DNA from: a bacterium
GTDB lineage: Bacteria > Patescibacteriota > CPR2 > UBA1875 > CAIMLA01
Length of the DNA stretch: 45,436 nt
NCBI GenBank assembly: GCA_037129835.1
Contig: JBAXUE010000007.1
Span: forward strand, 1 to 45,436
Direction of reading: 5' to 3'
Positions 11,676-45,436 of this stretch are shown here, piece after piece (within the stretch, counting starts at the first letter, position 1; every line of letters starts with the position of its first letter). The notes under the pieces were generated by a model. The model had not been told where the DNA came from. It ran no database searches and saw only the letters and a program-made list of their open reading frames with translations. The position numbers and the translations under genes were made by a program.

Positions 11676-11752
11676 GGGTGATTAGCTCAGCTGGCTAGAG
11701 CGTTGCATTGACATTGCAGAGGTCACAGGTTCGAGCCCTGTATCACCCACCA
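11676..11752 (+). tRNA. tRNA-Val (anticodon GAC), CCA encoded
   Basis: Hand-folded cloverleaf: GGGTGAT/ATCACCC acceptor, GCTC/GAGC D stem, TTGCA-TTGACAT-TGCAG anticodon arm, ACAGG-TTCGAGC-CCTGT T arm, then ACCA. Confidence 0.9.
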
Positions 11753-11753
11753 T

Positions 11754-11783
11754 AAATATCCTGAACTTGTTTCAGGATATTTA
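11754..11783. repeat. CCTGAA-hairpin element copy C (also a plausible tRNA-Val terminator)
   Basis: aaatATCCTGAActtgtTTCAGGATattt. It shares the ATCCTGAA / TTCAGGAT stem with the elements flanking the GIY-YIG gene. Confidence 0.6.
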
Positions 11784-11801
11784 TTATTATAAGATACAAT
11801 C

Positions 11802-23368: not shown

Positions 23369-23397
23369 ACCTACATTTCGTGCTAAAATACCACTCT

Positions 23398-24783
23398 ATG
23401 AAATACTATTTTTGGATACTTGGCTGTGCCATGAATTACTCAGATGCTGAACGGATGGCTACCATTCTTGATAGTTTGGGGTACACAAAAACTGATGTCG
23501 AAAGAGAGGCTGATCTTTTCATAGTTATTTCTTGCTCAGTTCGTGAATCTGCTATGCTTCGCATCTACGGCAAAGTAAAAGAGCTTATAGAATACAAAAG
23601 GAATAATACGAAATTTAAAACAATCCTCACTGGTTGTGTACTAGAAAAGGACCAAAAAAAACTAAAACGCGTTTTTGATATCTTGATGACCATGGAAGAC
23701 CTGCCGAAGTTGCCGGAAATGCTAAAAAACGCCACCCCCTCTCCCTCGTCATCCCTGGTCGCAAACCCAGGGATCTCTCTCGATCCCTCCGACTTGTCCA
23801 GCGTAGATTTAGTGAAGATGGGAGTAAATCCTAACTTTCGTAAGGATGACAGCGGAGAATATGAGAGTTACCTTAGTATCATTCCAAAATATCAAAGTCA
23901 TTTTCGCGCATATGTACCCATTTCTACGGGCTGCGATAACTTTTGTAGCTATTGTGCAGTACCTTATACAAAAGGTAGGGAAAAGTCCAGACTATCAGCA
24001 GAAATAGTTAGTGAAATAAAGAACTTAGTGAATAACGGGTTCAAAGAAATTACGTTATTGGGGCAAAATGTAAACAGTTATGGGCATGATATCTCCAGTA
24101 ATAAAAGAGATAATTCACCCTTTATTCATTTACTACTTGAGCTAGATACCATAGCCGGAGACCATAGAATATATTTCTACTCAAACCACCCGAAAGACAT
24201 GACAGATGAGCTAATAGTTACTTTGGCAAAACTAAAACATTTTCCTCACTACATCCATCTTCCCCTTCAATCTGGTAATAATGAAATTCTAAGGAATATG
24301 AATCGGCATAATACAAAAGAAGAATATTTACAATTAGTTAAGAAAATCAAAAATGCCATACCAGACGTAAACCTAACGACAGATATAATTGTCGGCTATC
24401 CAGGTGAAACCGAAAAACAGTTCAATGATACTGCAGATGTTATGCAACAAGCTGAGTATGATATGGCCTTTATTGCCCAATATTCCCCCAGACCAGGAAC
24501 GGTGAGTGCCAAGCAAGCAGACGACGTGACAAAAGAAGAAAAGGTTCGCCGCGAAAAAGTATTGCAGAAAATCGTTGCCGAAACAGTTCTTGAGTATAAC
24601 CAAAAACTAGTTGGAACAACTCAAAAAATACTCGTCGACGAACAAAAAGGCGATAAATACTATGGTCGGACATCTGGATATAAAGTTGTGGAGATTACAA
24701 CTGGCCAACCCGTACAGATTGGCCAGTATATTAACATAACTATAGAATCAGCTACTAGCTGGAAACTATTTGGGAATCAATAA
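23398..24783 (+). CDS. miaB: tRNA-i6A37 methylthiotransferase MiaB (radical SAM MTTase)
   Basis: MKYYFWILGCAMN MTTase N-domain, radical SAM CDNFCSYCAVPYTKGRE and a C-terminal TRAM-like domain. The linker between the N-domain and the radical SAM core contains a G+C-rich segment. Confidence 0.85.
   Translation: MKYYFWILGCAMNYSDAERMATILDSLGYTKTDVEREADLFIVISCSVRESAMLRIYGKVKELIEYKRNNTKFKTILTGCVLEKDQKKLKRVFDILMTMEDLPKLPEMLKNATPSPSSSLVANPGISLDPSDLSSVDLVKMGVNPNFRKDDSGEYESYLSIIPKYQSHFRAYVPISTGCDNFCSYCAVPYTKGREKSRLSAEIVSEIKNLVNNGFKEITLLGQNVNSYGHDISSNKRDNSPFIHLLLELDTIAGDHRIYFYSNHPKDMTDELIVTLAKLKHFPHYIHLPLQSGNNEILRNMNRHNTKEEYLQLVKKIKNAIPDVNLTTDIIVGYPGETEKQFNDTADVMQQAEYDMAFIAQYSPRPGTVSAKQADDVTKEEKVRREKVLQKIVAETVLEYNQKLVGTTQKILVDEQKGDKYYGRTSGYKVVEITTGQPVQIGQYINITIESATSWKLFGNQ
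23748..23777. repeat. CCTGAA-hairpin family variant (copy E) lying in frame inside miaB
   Basis: GTCATCCCTGGtcgcaaaCCCAGGGATCTC has an 8-bp stem (atccctgg/ccagggat). Its GTCATCC...GGATCTC flanks match copy A at 30863-30890. It is translated as SSSLVANPGISL. Confidence 0.55.
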
Positions 24784-29978: not shown

Positions 29979-30775
29979 TGGCAAGAAAAATAACTATCTA
30001 TCATCTATACCCAAACAACATGAACCTATACGGTGATCTTGGTAATATTACCGCTCTAGAAAAACGTTGTCTGTGGCGTGGAATTGAGACAGAAGTGGTT
30101 AATGTCAATGTCGGTGACACAGTAGATTTTTCTAAGGCAGACATACTTTTTATGGGAGGAGGTCAAGACACTGGTCAAAAAATAGTCGCTTCCGATTTAC
30201 AGGAAAAGGGTCAAGCAATAAGAGAGCAAATACAGGGCGGGTTATCAGCTCTTTTAGTTTGTGGAGGATTTCAACTTTTTGGACATTATTTTAAAACACT
30301 TGAGGGTAACCAGATAAAAGGGATAAGTGTATTTGATGCATATACCATTGCAAGTAATAGGCGTCTCATCGGAAATGTCGTTACAGACATTACTCACAAT
30401 CTAGCGGATTGGAAGATAGAATATGGTTTTGATGTAACAGAAAAAAACATTACTACATTAACAGGCTTTGAAAACCATAGTGGTCAAACTCATTTAAACC
30501 CTGGGCTTCTACCGTTTGGGTATATTATCGAAGGATACGGGAATGACTCAAATAAGCAATACGAAGGCGCAAGATTCAAAAATGCTTATGGAACTTATTT
30601 ACACGGAAGTCTTCTGCCAAAAAATCCGCACCTTACAGACCACTTTATAATGGCAGCAATAGCAAGAAGATATGGGGTAAAAGAAGCATTGGCACCACTT
30701 GACGATACAATAGAGCTAGAAGCTCACCAAGCATCTACCACTAGAGCAAAAACCGCAAAAACCGTTTCGCTTTAA
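29978..30775 (+). CDS. gatD: Lipid II isoglutaminyl synthase glutaminase subunit GatD (CobQ/CobB-type amidotransferase)
   Basis: LLVCGGFQLFG nucleophile-Cys motif and YLHGSLLPKNP. Its start overlaps the murT stop (ATAATG). Confidence 0.8.
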   Translation: MARKITIYHLYPNNMNLYGDLGNITALEKRCLWRGIETEVVNVNVGDTVDFSKADILFMGGGQDTGQKIVASDLQEKGQAIREQIQGGLSALLVCGGFQLFGHYFKTLEGNQIKGISVFDAYTIASNRRLIGNVVTDITHNLADWKIEYGFDVTEKNITTLTGFENHSGQTHLNPGLLPFGYIIEGYGNDSNKQYEGARFKNAYGTYLHGSLLPKNPHLTDHFIMAAIARRYGVKEALAPLDDTIELEAHQASTTRAKTAKTVSL

Positions 30776-30862
30776 CTTTATTTTATTTTGTATACTAGTA
30801 TTGTATAGCATACGGTACTATTATTACTATACAAAAGGCTATCTAATACCTTAATAACCTTT

Positions 30863-30890
30863 TGTCATCCTGAATTTATTTCAGGATCTC
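30863..30890. repeat. CCTGAA-hairpin element copy A (left flank of the GIY-YIG gene)
   Basis: tGTCATCCTGAAtttatTTCAGGATCTC. It is internally palindromic and is the exact reverse complement of 31168-31195. Confidence 0.85.
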
Positions 30891-30897
30891 GGATTGT

Positions 30898-31146
30898 ATG
30901 TATTGCATTTATATAATTACAAATAAATATAATGATGTATTTTATGTTGGTATGACGAATAATCTTGCTAGACGAGTTTTTGAACATAAAGAGAAACTTA
31001 TTAAGGGTTTTAGTAATAAATATAACTTAAACAAGTTGGTCTATTATGAAGTTGCAGATAATCCAGAAACAGCAATTTTCCGCGAGAAACAAATCAAAAA
31101 CTGGCATCGTGAATGGAAAATTAATCAAATAAATAAGACAAATTGA
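30898..31146 (+). CDS. Small GIY-YIG (URI) domain nuclease
   Basis: 82 aa. IYIITN...VFYVGMTNNLARRVFEHK...REKQIKNW are the GIY, YVG, R, E and N motifs. Confidence 0.85.
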   Translation: MYCIYIITNKYNDVFYVGMTNNLARRVFEHKEKLIKGFSNKYNLNKLVYYEVADNPETAIFREKQIKNWHREWKINQINKTN

Positions 31147-31167
31147 AATTGGAAAGATTTGTTTAAT

Positions 31168-31195
31168 GAGATCCTGAAATAAATTCAGGATGACA
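31168..31195. repeat. CCTGAA-hairpin element copy B (right flank of the GIY-YIG gene)
   Basis: GAGATCCTGAAataaaTTCAGGATGACa is a perfect 28/28 inverted repeat of copy A. Confidence 0.85.
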
Positions 31196-31212
31196 ATTGG
31201 AGGGAAGGGCAC

Positions 31213-32730
31213 ATGTTAGCTAAGATTAATTCTATAGCAATTATCGGGCTTAACGCAGAAAAAGTAGAGGTAGAAGTTGATTTATCGCCTGGGTTACCAG
31301 CTTTTAATATAGTCGGCCTCCCAGATAAAGCAGTCGAAGAATCAAAAGAACGTGTTCGAAGTGCTATAAAAAATAGTGGCGCCAACTTCCCTCAAAAAAG
31401 GATTACAGTAAACCTAGCTCCGGCGGACATTCGCAAAGAAGGTCCGTCTTATGACCTACCAATCGCAATAGGAATTCTTCTTGCAAGTGAGCAAGTATTA
31501 TTTGATTCTACAAAATCATTAATTGTTGGGGAGCTATCCCTGAATGGTGAGCTTAGACATACCAATGGAACTCTAGCAATGGCGATTGCAGCGAGAGAGT
31601 TTGGTTTCGAAGAAATAATTTTACCGAAGAGTAACAGTGAAGAGGCTGCTATAATAAATAATATCAATATCATCGGTGCTTTATCTTTATCAGAGTTAAT
31701 CAGCCACCTACGCAATGAAAACCAAATAGAAGCTATAGATTTTATACCTTTCGTCGAAGAAGAATCAATAGGCTATAAGCTTGATTTTAGCCAGATTATT
31801 GGACAAGAACATGCCAAAAGAGCTTTAGAAATATCCGCTGCAGGTGGGCACAATGTAATAATGGATGGTCCCCCAGGATCTGGTAAAACTCTATTGGCTC
31901 GGGCCCTTTGCTCTATCTTGCCACCCCTTACATATGAAGAAGCCCTTGAAGTCACAAAAATATACTCTGTTGCCGGAGCTTTAGAAAAAAGAACTTCCCT
32001 TGTAAAAAAACGCCCGTATCGAAGTCCACACCATACTACCAGCGGTGTTGCCTTAATTGGTGGTGGAAGCTGGCCAAGACCAGGAGAAATCAGCCTATCA
32101 CACCGTGGCGTATTGTTTTTGGATGAACTCCCAGAGTTTCCTAGACAGGTTCTTGAAGTGTTGAGACAACCCCTTGAAGACGGGGATATCACAATCTCAA
32201 GAGCGAATGGTAGTCTTTCTTTTCCAGCGAAGTTTATCTTGGTGGCTGCACAAAATCCCTGTCCCTGTGGTTATTCAACAGACCCCGAGAGACAATGCAC
32301 TTGTACTATTGGGCAAATAATTAAATACCAAAAGAAAATATCTGGTCCCTTACTAGATAGAATAGATATTCACCTGGAGGTGCCAAGGGTAGAATATTCA
32401 AAATTAGTTAATAATCACGCAGGAGAAAATTCCAGAGATATTCTAAAACGAGTTCAAGTAGCAAGGATTATTCAAAATAATAGATTTTTGGATACAAATA
32501 CAGTTACTAATTCCGAAATGTCTTTAACTGAGCTAAAAAAATATTGCGATACAAATCTAGAATGTAATAATTTGTTGGCTGCCGCAAGTAAGCAACTTGG
32601 TCTTTCAGCCCGGGGTTACCATCGAATTCTCAAACTATCTCGAACAATAGCGGACTTAGATAACTCTAGAGATATTAAAAAAGAACACATTGCAGAAGCT
32701 TTGCAATATAGGCCAAAACAAAGAATATAA
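31213..32730 (+). CDS. YifB/ComM family Mg-chelatase-like AAA+ ATPase
   Basis: N-terminal Lon-protease-like domain (VEVDLSPGLPAFNIVGLPD), Walker A GPPGSGKT, Walker B VLFLDELPEF, and a C-terminal helical domain. Confidence 0.9.
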   Translation: MLAKINSIAIIGLNAEKVEVEVDLSPGLPAFNIVGLPDKAVEESKERVRSAIKNSGANFPQKRITVNLAPADIRKEGPSYDLPIAIGILLASEQVLFDSTKSLIVGELSLNGELRHTNGTLAMAIAAREFGFEEIILPKSNSEEAAIINNINIIGALSLSELISHLRNENQIEAIDFIPFVEEESIGYKLDFSQIIGQEHAKRALEISAAGGHNVIMDGPPGSGKTLLARALCSILPPLTYEEALEVTKIYSVAGALEKRTSLVKKRPYRSPHHTTSGVALIGGGSWPRPGEISLSHRGVLFLDELPEFPRQVLEVLRQPLEDGDITISRANGSLSFPAKFILVAAQNPCPCGYSTDPERQCTCTIGQIIKYQKKISGPLLDRIDIHLEVPRVEYSKLVNNHAGENSRDILKRVQVARIIQNNRFLDTNTVTNSEMSLTELKKYCDTNLECNNLLAAASKQLGLSARGYHRILKLSRTIADLDNSRDIKKEHIAEALQYRPKQRI

Positions 32731-39054: not shown

Positions 39055-39058
39055 AATA

Positions 39059-39640
39059 CTTAGTTAGCCGATAAGCCGGGTTCTGTTCGTCCGGCAGCTG
39101 CCGGATCTGACGATCATCTATCTATGCGACAGGACTACTAGAAATGGGTCTGTATCACGACTTTTTCGAACTAGTCATCTTAAGAGAGATTACCCTCTTT
39201 CAAATCATACTCGACACAACCATTAGCCCACCTGTCTTGCACCTGATAGGGTTTACCTCCGTCTGCTGTCGCCAGCAGGCGCTGTGAGCTCTTGCCTCAC
39301 TCTTTTCACCCTTACCACGTAAACGTGGCGGTATTGTCTCTGTGGCACTTTCCCTAGCCTTAGAACCCACTCAGAATCTCATGTTGAGCTTCAACTTCTT
39401 AATTTCGAGCTAAAAGCTTGAAAATTGAAGAAAAATATCGAGATATATTGACGAGTTTTGAATGATTTGCAGCCGAAATTATACAGCTTTAGCCAACAAG
39501 TACTCTATTCGAATATATTCTTTCAAAACGGTGAGGTTTTGAGTGGGTTCATATAACCGGTCGCCGTTAGCGACTATCATGATAACAAGGTGCCCGGACT
39601 TTCCTCTCCAAAAAGGAGCGATCGTCTGGATAACTAAGCT
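39059..39640 (-). ncRNA. rnpB: RNase P RNA (bacterial type A) with a large helix expansion
   Basis: The reverse complement reads AGCUUAGUUAUCCAGACGAUCGCUCCUUUUUGGAGAGGAAAGUCCGGGC..., then GUCGC-UAAC-GGCGAC (P8-like), GUGCCACAGAGACAAUACCGCC, GGUAAGGGUGAAA, and finally ACAGAACCCGGCUUAUCGGCUAACUAAG. The universally conserved CR-I and CR-V blocks and the P1 pairing (CUUAGUUA/UAACUAAG) are all present. Confidence 0.9.
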
Positions 39641-45124: not shown

Positions 45125-45343
45125 GATACACCTCAATTAATAACTGCATTATAAAATACTTATTCAACTATGTCTAGTACTTTGTGCTTATTTTGTACAA
45201 ACTAGTTATACAAAGGGATATTTTTGCGCACAAAGGGGCTGGTAATAATCTAACAAGGTTAAGATTCTGAAATTACTACGAGAAGGCATTAAGAGTAGTT
45301 CTCTATTCGGCAGTTGCCGAAATTCGAACAATAAAAGGGAGTG

Positions 45344-45365
45344 CCTGAGACTAATTCAGGATGAC
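45344..45365. repeat. Degenerate CCTGAA-hairpin element copy D
   Basis: CCTGAgactaatTCAGGATGAC. The 3' arm, taattcaggatgac, matches copy B (aaattcaggatgac) at 13 of 14 positions. Confidence 0.45.
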
Positions 45366-45436
45366 GATAAAGGAAACCCTCTACTGCCCCATAAACCTGC
45401 CACCCAGTTTCCCAAAGAACTGGTTGAGCCTCTGAG

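Follow-up and report, generated by a model that had tools for sequence, protein, structure and literature searches.

A truncated GIY-YIG nuclease gene between inverted hairpins in a Patescibacteria contig is probably a member of the Ssn/SRM system

Analysis of a 45,436-nucleotide contig of a bacterium of the Patescibacteriota (JBAXUE010000007.1 of assembly GCA_037129835.1; the whole contig is called the window below) drew our attention to a short cassette in which a gene for a small GIY-YIG nuclease lies between two inverted copies of a hairpin. We conclude, with a probability that we put at about 0.82, that this cassette belongs to the Ssn/SRM system, in which an ssn nuclease gene is placed between inverted copies of its cognate hairpin, the SRM (Ssn-related motif). 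The arrangement of a nuclease gene with bracketing hairpins is not new, having been described in 2025 (PMC11893778); what is new here is a C-terminally truncated Patescibacteria member of the system and a hairpin class that lies outside the published search pattern. A preliminary description of this DNA had supposed that the small GIY-YIG protein recognises and cleaves the hairpin family, which experiments on homologues have shown to be right, and had known of no mechanistic description, a remark overtaken by the Ssn biochemistry published in 2025 (PMC11893778).

The reference case is SsnA of Neisseria meningitidis (Chenal et al. 2025, Nat Commun 16:2388), a protein of 94 amino acids consisting of a single GIY-YIG domain (CDD cd10448), which binds the oriented dRS3 repeat (NTS, CGTCATTCCCGCGMAVGCGGGAATCYRG) solely as single-stranded DNA (ssDNA) and cuts it a few nucleotides upstream (PMC11893778). 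Hairpin-specific, ssDNA-only cleavage was shown for SsnA of both Neisseria and Wolbachia, and cleavage was lost in the Y6A, Y17A and E64A mutants (PMC11893778). On the side of the DNA, the three bases 5' of the palindrome control cleavage by SsnA, and for its binding no base matters more than the C just 3' of the palindrome (PMC11893778). SRMs were found near 71% of ssn genes and on both sides in 42%, and the meningococcal SsnA lowers transformation by NTS-bearing DNA (PMC11893778).

We found that the protein encoded in the window matches the Pfam GIY-YIG family (PF01541, E 3.6e-17) with its residues 1-76 against model positions 1-78 of 78, i.e. over the complete domain, and its Y5, Y16 and E63 are invariant in family alignments, at spacings of 11 and 47 that equal those of Y6, Y17 and E64 in the meningococcal protein. 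For comparison we used the N. gonorrhoeae ssnA orthologue (positions 1501-1770 of contig L102), not the meningococcal SsnA to which the homology criterion of the published study refers (E<1e-10; PMC11893778), and the E-values given here are pairwise. The window protein is 42% identical to this orthologue over 79 amino acids without a gap (E 1e-27), and its closest intact relative P0002, encoded on contig L084 and 76% identical to the window protein, is 40% identical to it over 90 amino acids including the C-terminal tail, again without a gap (E 2e-30). The numbering of the gonococcal orthologue fits Y6/Y17/E64 and a length of 94 amino acids, and NTS repeats surround its gene. An AlphaFold2 (AF2) model of P0002 consists of one compact GIY-YIG domain (pLDDT 94.5), whose best Foldseek matches are UPF0213, Slx1, UvrC-N and I-TevI; with the window protein, a PDB sequence search and PADLOC gave no match, and NCBIfam has no family-specific model for it. 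Contig L102 (NZ_CP119142.1 1880219-1883488) comes from a 2.17-Mb N. gonorrhoeae chromosome that is filed as a plasmid in PLSDB, and its ssnA frame has no in-frame ATG (the ATG close by, at 1494, belongs to another frame), which suggests a 5' frameshift in the gonococcal copy.

The two hairpin arms (Table 1) form a perfect inverted repeat over 29 of 29 positions, one base longer than the exact 28-nucleotide reverse complements noticed before. They read TGTC-ATCCTGAA-TTTAT-TTCAGGAT-CTC; in the left arm, the tag TGTC occupies 30863-30866, the stem 30867-30874 and 30880-30887 and the loop TTTAT 30875-30879, and the C at 30888 is followed by TC. As ssDNA, each arm folds into the 8-bp stem that had been proposed for it, with a loop of 5 nucleotides (dG -6.2 kcal/mol, z about -3.7), and the covariance model R1 scored the left arm at 44.8 bits (E 5e-10) and the right arm at 45.9 bits (E 2.5e-10). 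A third site for the 28-mer of the arms was absent from the window even at 3 mismatches (0 expected from 100 shuffles), and Rfam gave no family for the hairpin in 30700-31300, at gathering thresholds or at E<=10. Other particulars of the preliminary description also held: the open reading frame (ORF) of 82 amino acids is indeed a GIY-YIG gene by its Pfam match, the arms end 7 nucleotides before its ATG at 30898 and begin 21 nucleotides after its TGA at 31146, and the cassette stands between gatD and a comM-like gene, with MurT/GatD encoded upstream and a ComM-type Mg-chelatase-like ATPase downstream; it had overlooked the truncation of the gene. Besides the 8-bp stem, both arms have the two published determinants of Ssn, the GTC tag 5' of the stem and the C directly 3' of it. 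The cassette thus resembles the archetype in its single-domain GIY-YIG protein of about 94 amino acids in the family, with 40-42% identity and identical catalytic spacing, in its flanking oriented hairpins, whose tag is (C/T)GTC and whose 8-bp stem starts with AT and is followed by a C, and in belonging to a family that is widespread across phyla. It differs in its stem, which is of the CCTGAA type with a 5-nucleotide YTTRW loop as opposed to CCCGCG with a 4-nucleotide loop in the NTS, in the truncation of its gene and in its host, Patescibacteria being a group that Chenal et al. do not mention (PMC11893778).

Table 1. Coordinates of the cassette and of the other hairpin-like elements in the window (SRM, cognate hairpin; F, tag first on the plus strand; R, the reverse; R1, covariance model)
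Feature	Position	Strand	Remarks
Left hairpin arm (SRM, F orientation)	30862..30890	+	TGTC tag reads 5' on the plus strand
ssn-like single-domain GIY-YIG nuclease ORF, 82 amino acids	30898..31146	+	Ended by a premature TGA at 31144-31146
Cut-off ancestral C-terminus NWKDLFNEILK*	31147..31182	+	In-frame continuation; last codons and TAA inside the right hairpin
Right hairpin arm (same SRM, R orientation)	31168..31196	-	GAC tag on the outer side, beside the comM ribosome-binding site
Intragenic SRM, GC-rich variant GTC-ATCCCTGG...CCAGGGAT-CTC	23744..23781	+	F orientation, in the miaB linker; R1 18.0 bits, E 0.009
Degenerate partner SRM	23821..23854	-	R orientation; R1 14.9 bits, E 0.06; weak fold; overlooked by the preliminary description
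14-bp perfect palindrome directly 3' of tRNA-Val	11752..11784	+	R1 core-only match, 26.4 bits; -11.2 kcal/mol, z -8.4
Probable decayed SRM relic	45343..45366	-	CGTC tag and exact 5' arm ATCCTGAA; 3' arm degenerate

The link between gene and hairpin extends well beyond the window. We scanned one genome per species, which gave 535 relatives, and took the locus statistics from the best 80 of these 535, which represent more than 10 phyla and encode proteins 47-67% identical to that of the window. Perfect hairpins with an 8-bp stem and a 5-nucleotide loop had a density of 3.8 per kb within -150 to +200 nucleotides of the gene as against 0.18 per kb elsewhere in the 80 loci, a 21-fold enrichment near the gene. 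When aligned by their tags, the hairpins give yGTC-[A-Y-N-C-Y-G-N-N]-YTTRW-[complement]-C-T/C as their consensus; their stem occurs in the fully compensated variants ATCCTGAA, ATGCTGAA, ACCCTGAA, ATGCCGAA, ATTCCGAA, ATTCCGCA and ATTGCGGG, and in a further variant with a ATTCCCGC stem the loop has 4 nucleotides. A C follows the stem in 118 of the 119 unique tagged hairpins found beside homologues, even though this base was not a selection criterion. At most of the 80 loci the gene has such oriented hairpins, GTC-tagged and with the 3' C, at its side. Among the same 119, the base before GTC is T in 80 and C in 28; the stem starts with A followed by T or C, and the tail reads C-T/C-C/A. The commonest layout is that of the window, with the tags outward (tag-first upstream, tag-last downstream), seen at 22 of the 31 loci where hairpins were detected on both sides, and gene-less adjacent hairpin pairs are almost always inverted (17 FR and 16 RF versus 3 FF and 3 RR). 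Gene and hairpin even overlap: in 36 loci the first hairpin downstream of the gene has the R orientation, and in 14 of these it contains the stop codon, which in 11 of the 14 is the TGA of GGATGAC; the homologue ends DPEINSG and DPETSSG and the starts CHPELVSGS and EILKQVQDD are the same hairpin translated in other frames. Stems of the CCTGAA/GCTGAA type appear to be dominant among the closest relatives of the window protein, across more than 10 phyla. From the multi-copy genomes L003/L006, L002/L065/L068 and L045/L073 no common mobile unit could be extracted, as they presented either tangled repeat arrays or no DNA similarity. The two ssn copies of L003/L006 (CP184673.1, Atrimonadaceae) stand 17 kb apart in dense hairpin-repeat arrays like BIME/NIME clusters.

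Several observations weigh against assigning the cassette to the Ssn/SRM system. The published SRM pattern, HGTCWYN(0-2)YYVSBRHN(0-5)WNVSBRGN(0-2)RNCYNB, has no match in the window, and the 45 kb hold only 2 intact SRMs together with 4 degenerate ones, with no large expansion visible. The tags point outward in the window as opposed to inward at the N. gonorrhoeae ssnA locus, where GACG closes the repeat upstream of the gene and CGTC opens those downstream. Moreover, the ORF of the window ends at residue 82, and the window copy may therefore be inactive. As to the pattern, it matches the NTS controls and yet lies near the gene in merely 5 of the 80 related loci; it is a search aid drawn from 29 genomes, not a biochemical definition, and a covariance model built from CCTGAA-type hairpins also detects Neisseria NTS copies. 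The failure of the pattern thus indicates that CCTGAA-type hairpins have probably been under-counted, not that they form a different system, and the published association figures of 71% and 42% are probably underestimates.

The truncation is evident from the comparison with homologues, which are 94-106 amino acids long. Reading through the TGA gives NWKDLFNEILK and then, within the right-hairpin loop, a TAA at 31180-31182; this peptide matches the C-termini of P0002 (...NPEWKDLYNEILK) and P0007, in agreement with the DNA of L084. The greater length of the homologues and the conserved readthrough frame indicate that the ORF of the window is truncated and that the ancestral stop lay in the right-hairpin loop. 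TGA as a sense codon was rejected: table 11 leaves the long ORFs of the window unbroken, and TGA is the stop codon of 5 out of 41 of them. The code is the standard one, and the GC content is 38%. Since the premature stop removes the last 12 residues, the activity of the window copy is uncertain. The AF2 model of P0002 places residues 82-94 beyond the core, as a loop followed by a short terminal helix, and judged from this model the truncation would remove only these two elements. On contig L084, an abrupt switch from GC-rich (1-620) to AT-rich (630-1707) sequence occurs just upstream of the conserved spacer motif; the contig may therefore be a Logan chimera, which makes its gene context unreliable.

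These findings leave some room for the explanation that the cassette is a decaying relic, with ssn a pseudogene and the hairpins now mere short homologies for host recombination, an incidental structure beside comM. The premature TGA is accompanied by two more substitutions in the neighbouring codon relative to L084, many homologues are likewise truncated or frameshifted (72-88 amino acids; P0022), and the few SRM copies in the window are mostly degenerate. The arms, however, are still identical over 29 of 29 positions, no catalytic residue and no part of the Pfam domain has been lost, the frame beyond the TGA is still open and conserved, and the same allele is present in four assemblies, so that we regard a mere relic as possible but doubtful. 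Two other explanations are far less probable. That the gene is a free-standing GIY-YIG homing endonuclease targeting a double-stranded site in the gatD-comM spacer would suit the presence/absence polymorphism described below and a weak N-terminal similarity (TIGR01453, 26.9 bits; phrog_7168, E 5e-5). However, the TIGR01453 score is below the 56-bit cut-off and covers the N-terminal 35 residues alone, the PHROG matches are limited to the first 43-66 residues of models with 284-574 positions, both being confined to the GIY-YIG motif region, and the whole protein is a single nuclease domain with no DNA-binding domain. Its homologues, moreover, occur in many unrelated contexts, always with hairpins, and the characterised Ssn members do not cut double-stranded DNA (PMC11893778), all of which makes homing very improbable. 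Hardly better placed is the view that the hairpins act in RNA, by terminating, attenuating or stabilising the transcripts of ssn or comM. There are stable stem-loops at both ends of the gene, and an SRM-like palindrome follows tRNA-Val; yet the inverted arms would give the transcript ends different loops and tags, whereas conservation is symmetric in the DNA. No T-run follows the hairpins, Rfam has no match, SsnA does not bind RNA (PMC11893778), and gene-less dimers lie inside coding sequence.

The gatD-comM junctions of relatives show that the cassette is not a fixed part of this locus. In L085, the closest relative recovered (MurT 90%, GatD 89% and ComM 94% identical), and in L086 the spacer has about 80 nucleotides, and in L090 about 170, without ssn or SRM. 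These are the empty sites for which the preliminary description had wished to compare the junctions, and together with the strain variants below they dispose of the objection that the cassette might be fixed in all relatives. The right boundary of the insert is exact, as TTGGAGGG, the ribosome-binding site of comM, adjoins the right arm on its outer side and in L085 directly follows the spacer. The left boundary is uncertain by about 25 nucleotides because the spacer has diverged. Of the features of an insertion sequence (IS), terminal inverted repeats and presence/absence polymorphism are present; the cassette has a single copy in the window, and its flanks read TT/TT, the left flank being diverged. 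At 30831-30865 we noticed a 12-bp imperfect inverted repeat (ACAAAAGGCTAT / ATAACCTTTTGT) whose 3' arm runs into the first 4 nucleotides of the left arm; the approximately 25 nucleotides without a counterpart in the L085 empty site suggest that the inserted DNA may begin upstream of the 29-nucleotide arm. The motif TTGTATACTAGTATTGTATAG (TTGTATA-N6-TTGTATA, 30788-30808) was rejected as a part of the cassette, since the spacers of L085 and, in altered form, L086 contain it although they have no cassette. It is unique in the window, is conserved in the spacers of L085 and, with changes, of L086 and L090, and lies 39 nucleotides upstream of the cassette in L084; it may be a comM promoter or operator. 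The cassette is 16 nucleotides upstream of comM, a natural-transformation helicase gene, and SsnA modulates transformation in Neisseria; as relatives have comM without the cassette, this adjacency may be a coincidence.

Contigs whose GatD protein is 100% identical and whose DNA is at least 99.9% identical to the window revealed different arrangements at the same site. While L081, L083 and L108 agree with the window, L106 (2383-2449) is identical to it up to 30889 and then has 10 nucleotides and a different R-type hairpin (ATGCTGAA), and in L107 (2290-2345) another R-type hairpin (ATTCCGGA) directly follows 30889; these two contigs come from two other samples, both alternative hairpins are gene-less and score 34-35 bits with the covariance model, and both contigs stop there. 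L082 (3963-4463; = L104) comes from the sample that also gave L106; its cassette is inverted with respect to comM, and the far arm of this cassette, which has 28 and not 29 nucleotides, is fused to an unrelated gene, at the 3' end of that gene, which is absent from the window. A single recombination cannot produce L082, which requires at least two events or a flipping cassette, or else a misassembly. The variants L106, L107 and L082 come from short-read contig ends; if they are real, there are several structural alleles that share the left arm as a breakpoint. Judged from these sequences, past insertion and ongoing rearrangement at the gatD-comM site are supported. Since recombination between the 29-nucleotide arms would give the same picture, the data do not show which enzyme moves the cassette. 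Of the mobile system proposed in the preliminary description, past insertion and ongoing rearrangement are thus supported, and movement driven by the nuclease is still a hypothesis.

For the Ssn/SRM member that we propose here, we envisage, on the strength of the homology to characterised SsnA proteins, that the Ssn protein of about 94 amino acids would bind the folded hairpin solely in ssDNA, such as that of replication, repair or transforming-DNA uptake, that binding would involve the stem together with the C directly after it, and that Ssn would nick a few nucleotides (about 3) 5' of the GTC tag. Since the tags point outward, the predicted nicks would fall just outside both arms on opposite strands, near 30859/30860 on the plus and near 31198/31199 on the minus strand. 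The unit would have been inserted into an ancestrally short gatD-comM spacer, with rearrangement at the hairpin arms presumably continuing in the population. An extension of the same assignment, which we put forward tentatively, is that the unit is an autonomous IS-like transposon in which Ssn serves as the transposase, nicking outside the outward tags, and of which the gene-less F-R dimers are non-autonomous derivatives. The cassette has 29-bp perfect terminal inverted repeats, its outward tags recur in 22 of 31 loci, and in 14 of 36 loci the ORF ends within the right hairpin, as ORFs do in many IS elements. Consistent with movement are also the empty sites in relatives, the gene-less dimers or the inverted, newly flanked cassette that near-identical strains have at this site, the different SRM-encoded in-frame inserts that recur in the MiaB linker of different lineages and the scatter of proteins with 55-67% identity over unrelated phyla. 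The authors of the Ssn paper raised the same idea, likening NTS-ssnA-NTS to an insertion sequence and to the REP/RAYT system (repetitive extragenic palindromes with their associated transposase) and leaving mobility as a hypothesis (PMC11893778); our literature search found no later publication that settles the mobility of ssn units.

There are, however, substantial points on the other side of this extension. Strand transfer or ligation is not known for GIY-YIG domains of such a size, the left and right hairpins often differ in their stems, and in Neisseria the tags point inward. No clear target-site duplication was found (TT/TT at most, with a left boundary uncertain by about 25 nucleotides), and the variants come from short-read contig ends. 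The breakpoint that the strain variants share is at the inner end of the left arm and not at the predicted nick, so that homologous recombination between the arms fits equally well. We therefore think it rather unlikely that outward-tag SRM-ssn-SRM cassettes are active GIY-YIG-driven ssDNA transposons now inserting and rearranging in Patescibacteria populations, with the gene-less F-R dimers as derivatives resembling miniature inverted-repeat transposable elements (MITE-like); the gatD-comM spacer would then be a hot spot, and the MiaB linker a place of repeated in-frame insertion.

The layout invites comparison with the known hairpin systems. As in REP/RAYT (REPtron) and IS200/IS605, a nuclease gene lies between inverted copies of a hairpin recognised as ssDNA, with further hairpins dispersed as singletons and dimers (REPIN-like). 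In contrast, the enzyme here is a GIY-YIG hydrolase where those systems have an HUH Y1 transposase, GTC takes the place of GTAG as the tag, and a covalent intermediate or strand transfer is not known for Ssn. We therefore do not count the cassette as a REP/RAYT member, the enclosed protein being a GIY-YIG domain alone and the tag GTC, and the preliminary description was right to speak of a REP/RAYT-like layout with a different nuclease. By its sequence, the window hairpin fits the superfamily of REPs tagged with CGTC or TGTC (Di Nocera et al. 2013, BMC Genomics), which includes Neisseria dRS3 and Rickettsia RPE-4/RPE-6 and is defined by a CGTC/TGTC tag, an 8-9 bp stem starting with AT, a loop of 4-5 nucleotides and a 3-nucleotide tail (PMC3733652). 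In this superfamily inverted dimers predominate, intragenic in-frame copies occur, and the elements 'apparently lack a dedicated transposase' (PMC3733652), a gap that the Ssn work of 2025 has since filled (PMC11893778). The tail of the window type is mostly CTC, unlike the CCA of the CGTC-tagged REPs, and that study did not cover phyla such as Patescibacteria (PMC3733652).

Since the main idea was published together with its biochemistry in 2025, the window opens no new class. What it adds is that the range of the Ssn family extends into Patescibacteria, and that the published SRM pattern overlooks what is apparently the dominant hairpin class of the closest relatives of the window protein. 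The locus also provides a natural test case for whether NTS-ssn-NTS units move, the point that the authors left open, offering an empty site with about 90%-identical flanking proteins, at least 3 structural alleles and in-frame dimers in an essential-type gene. If the transposon explanation were true, ssn would be the 'missing transposase' of the CGTC-tagged REP superfamily.

Among the related hairpins that the preliminary description had listed elsewhere in the window, the tagged variant in miaB stood, whereas the copy at 11758 has no recognition tags and that at 45343-45366 is degenerate. The miaB hairpin at 23744-23781 folds with -7.0 kcal/mol (z -3.9), and with its partner it forms a gene-less dimer with outward tags at 23744-23854, 111 nucleotides or 37 codons in frame within the miaB ORF (23380-24783), in the linker that joins the UPF0004 domain to the radical-SAM domain. 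The resulting insert of about 40 amino acids is absent from most MiaB orthologues at about 70% identity and present in a relative at 95%; the sources of the named MiaB matches indicate a Patescibacteria genome. Other hairpin-encoded inserts occupy the same position in MiaB, namely RHSEFTSES...TLKQVQDD in P0127, SLRAERSNL in P0170 and RDSSLRWND in P0124. The linker looks like a recurrent insertion hot spot, if these alignments are a guide, and the in-frame inserts parallel the Rickettsia palindromic elements.

The palindrome beside tRNA-Val contains, at 11758-11778, the commonest 21-nucleotide SRM core (ATCCTGAA-CTTGT-TTCAGGAT); it carries no GTC tag, and a T replaces the post-stem C. By the published determinants, this copy is predicted to be neither bound well nor cut, and the whole palindrome may be an exapted terminator-like hairpin. 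At 45343-45366, an R1 search at E<=10 detected nothing, and the sequence folds into merely 5 bp (-2.7 kcal/mol); the exact CGTCATCCTGAA kept on the minus strand despite this poor fold suggests a decayed relic. Elsewhere in the window, the RNase P RNA gene (39056-39637, minus strand) is 582 nucleotides long as compared with the 367 positions of its model, has no hairpin-model match, carries a second expansion near model position 250 and is enlarged by a 197-nucleotide insertion that replaces a 6-nucleotide loop near positions 93-98.

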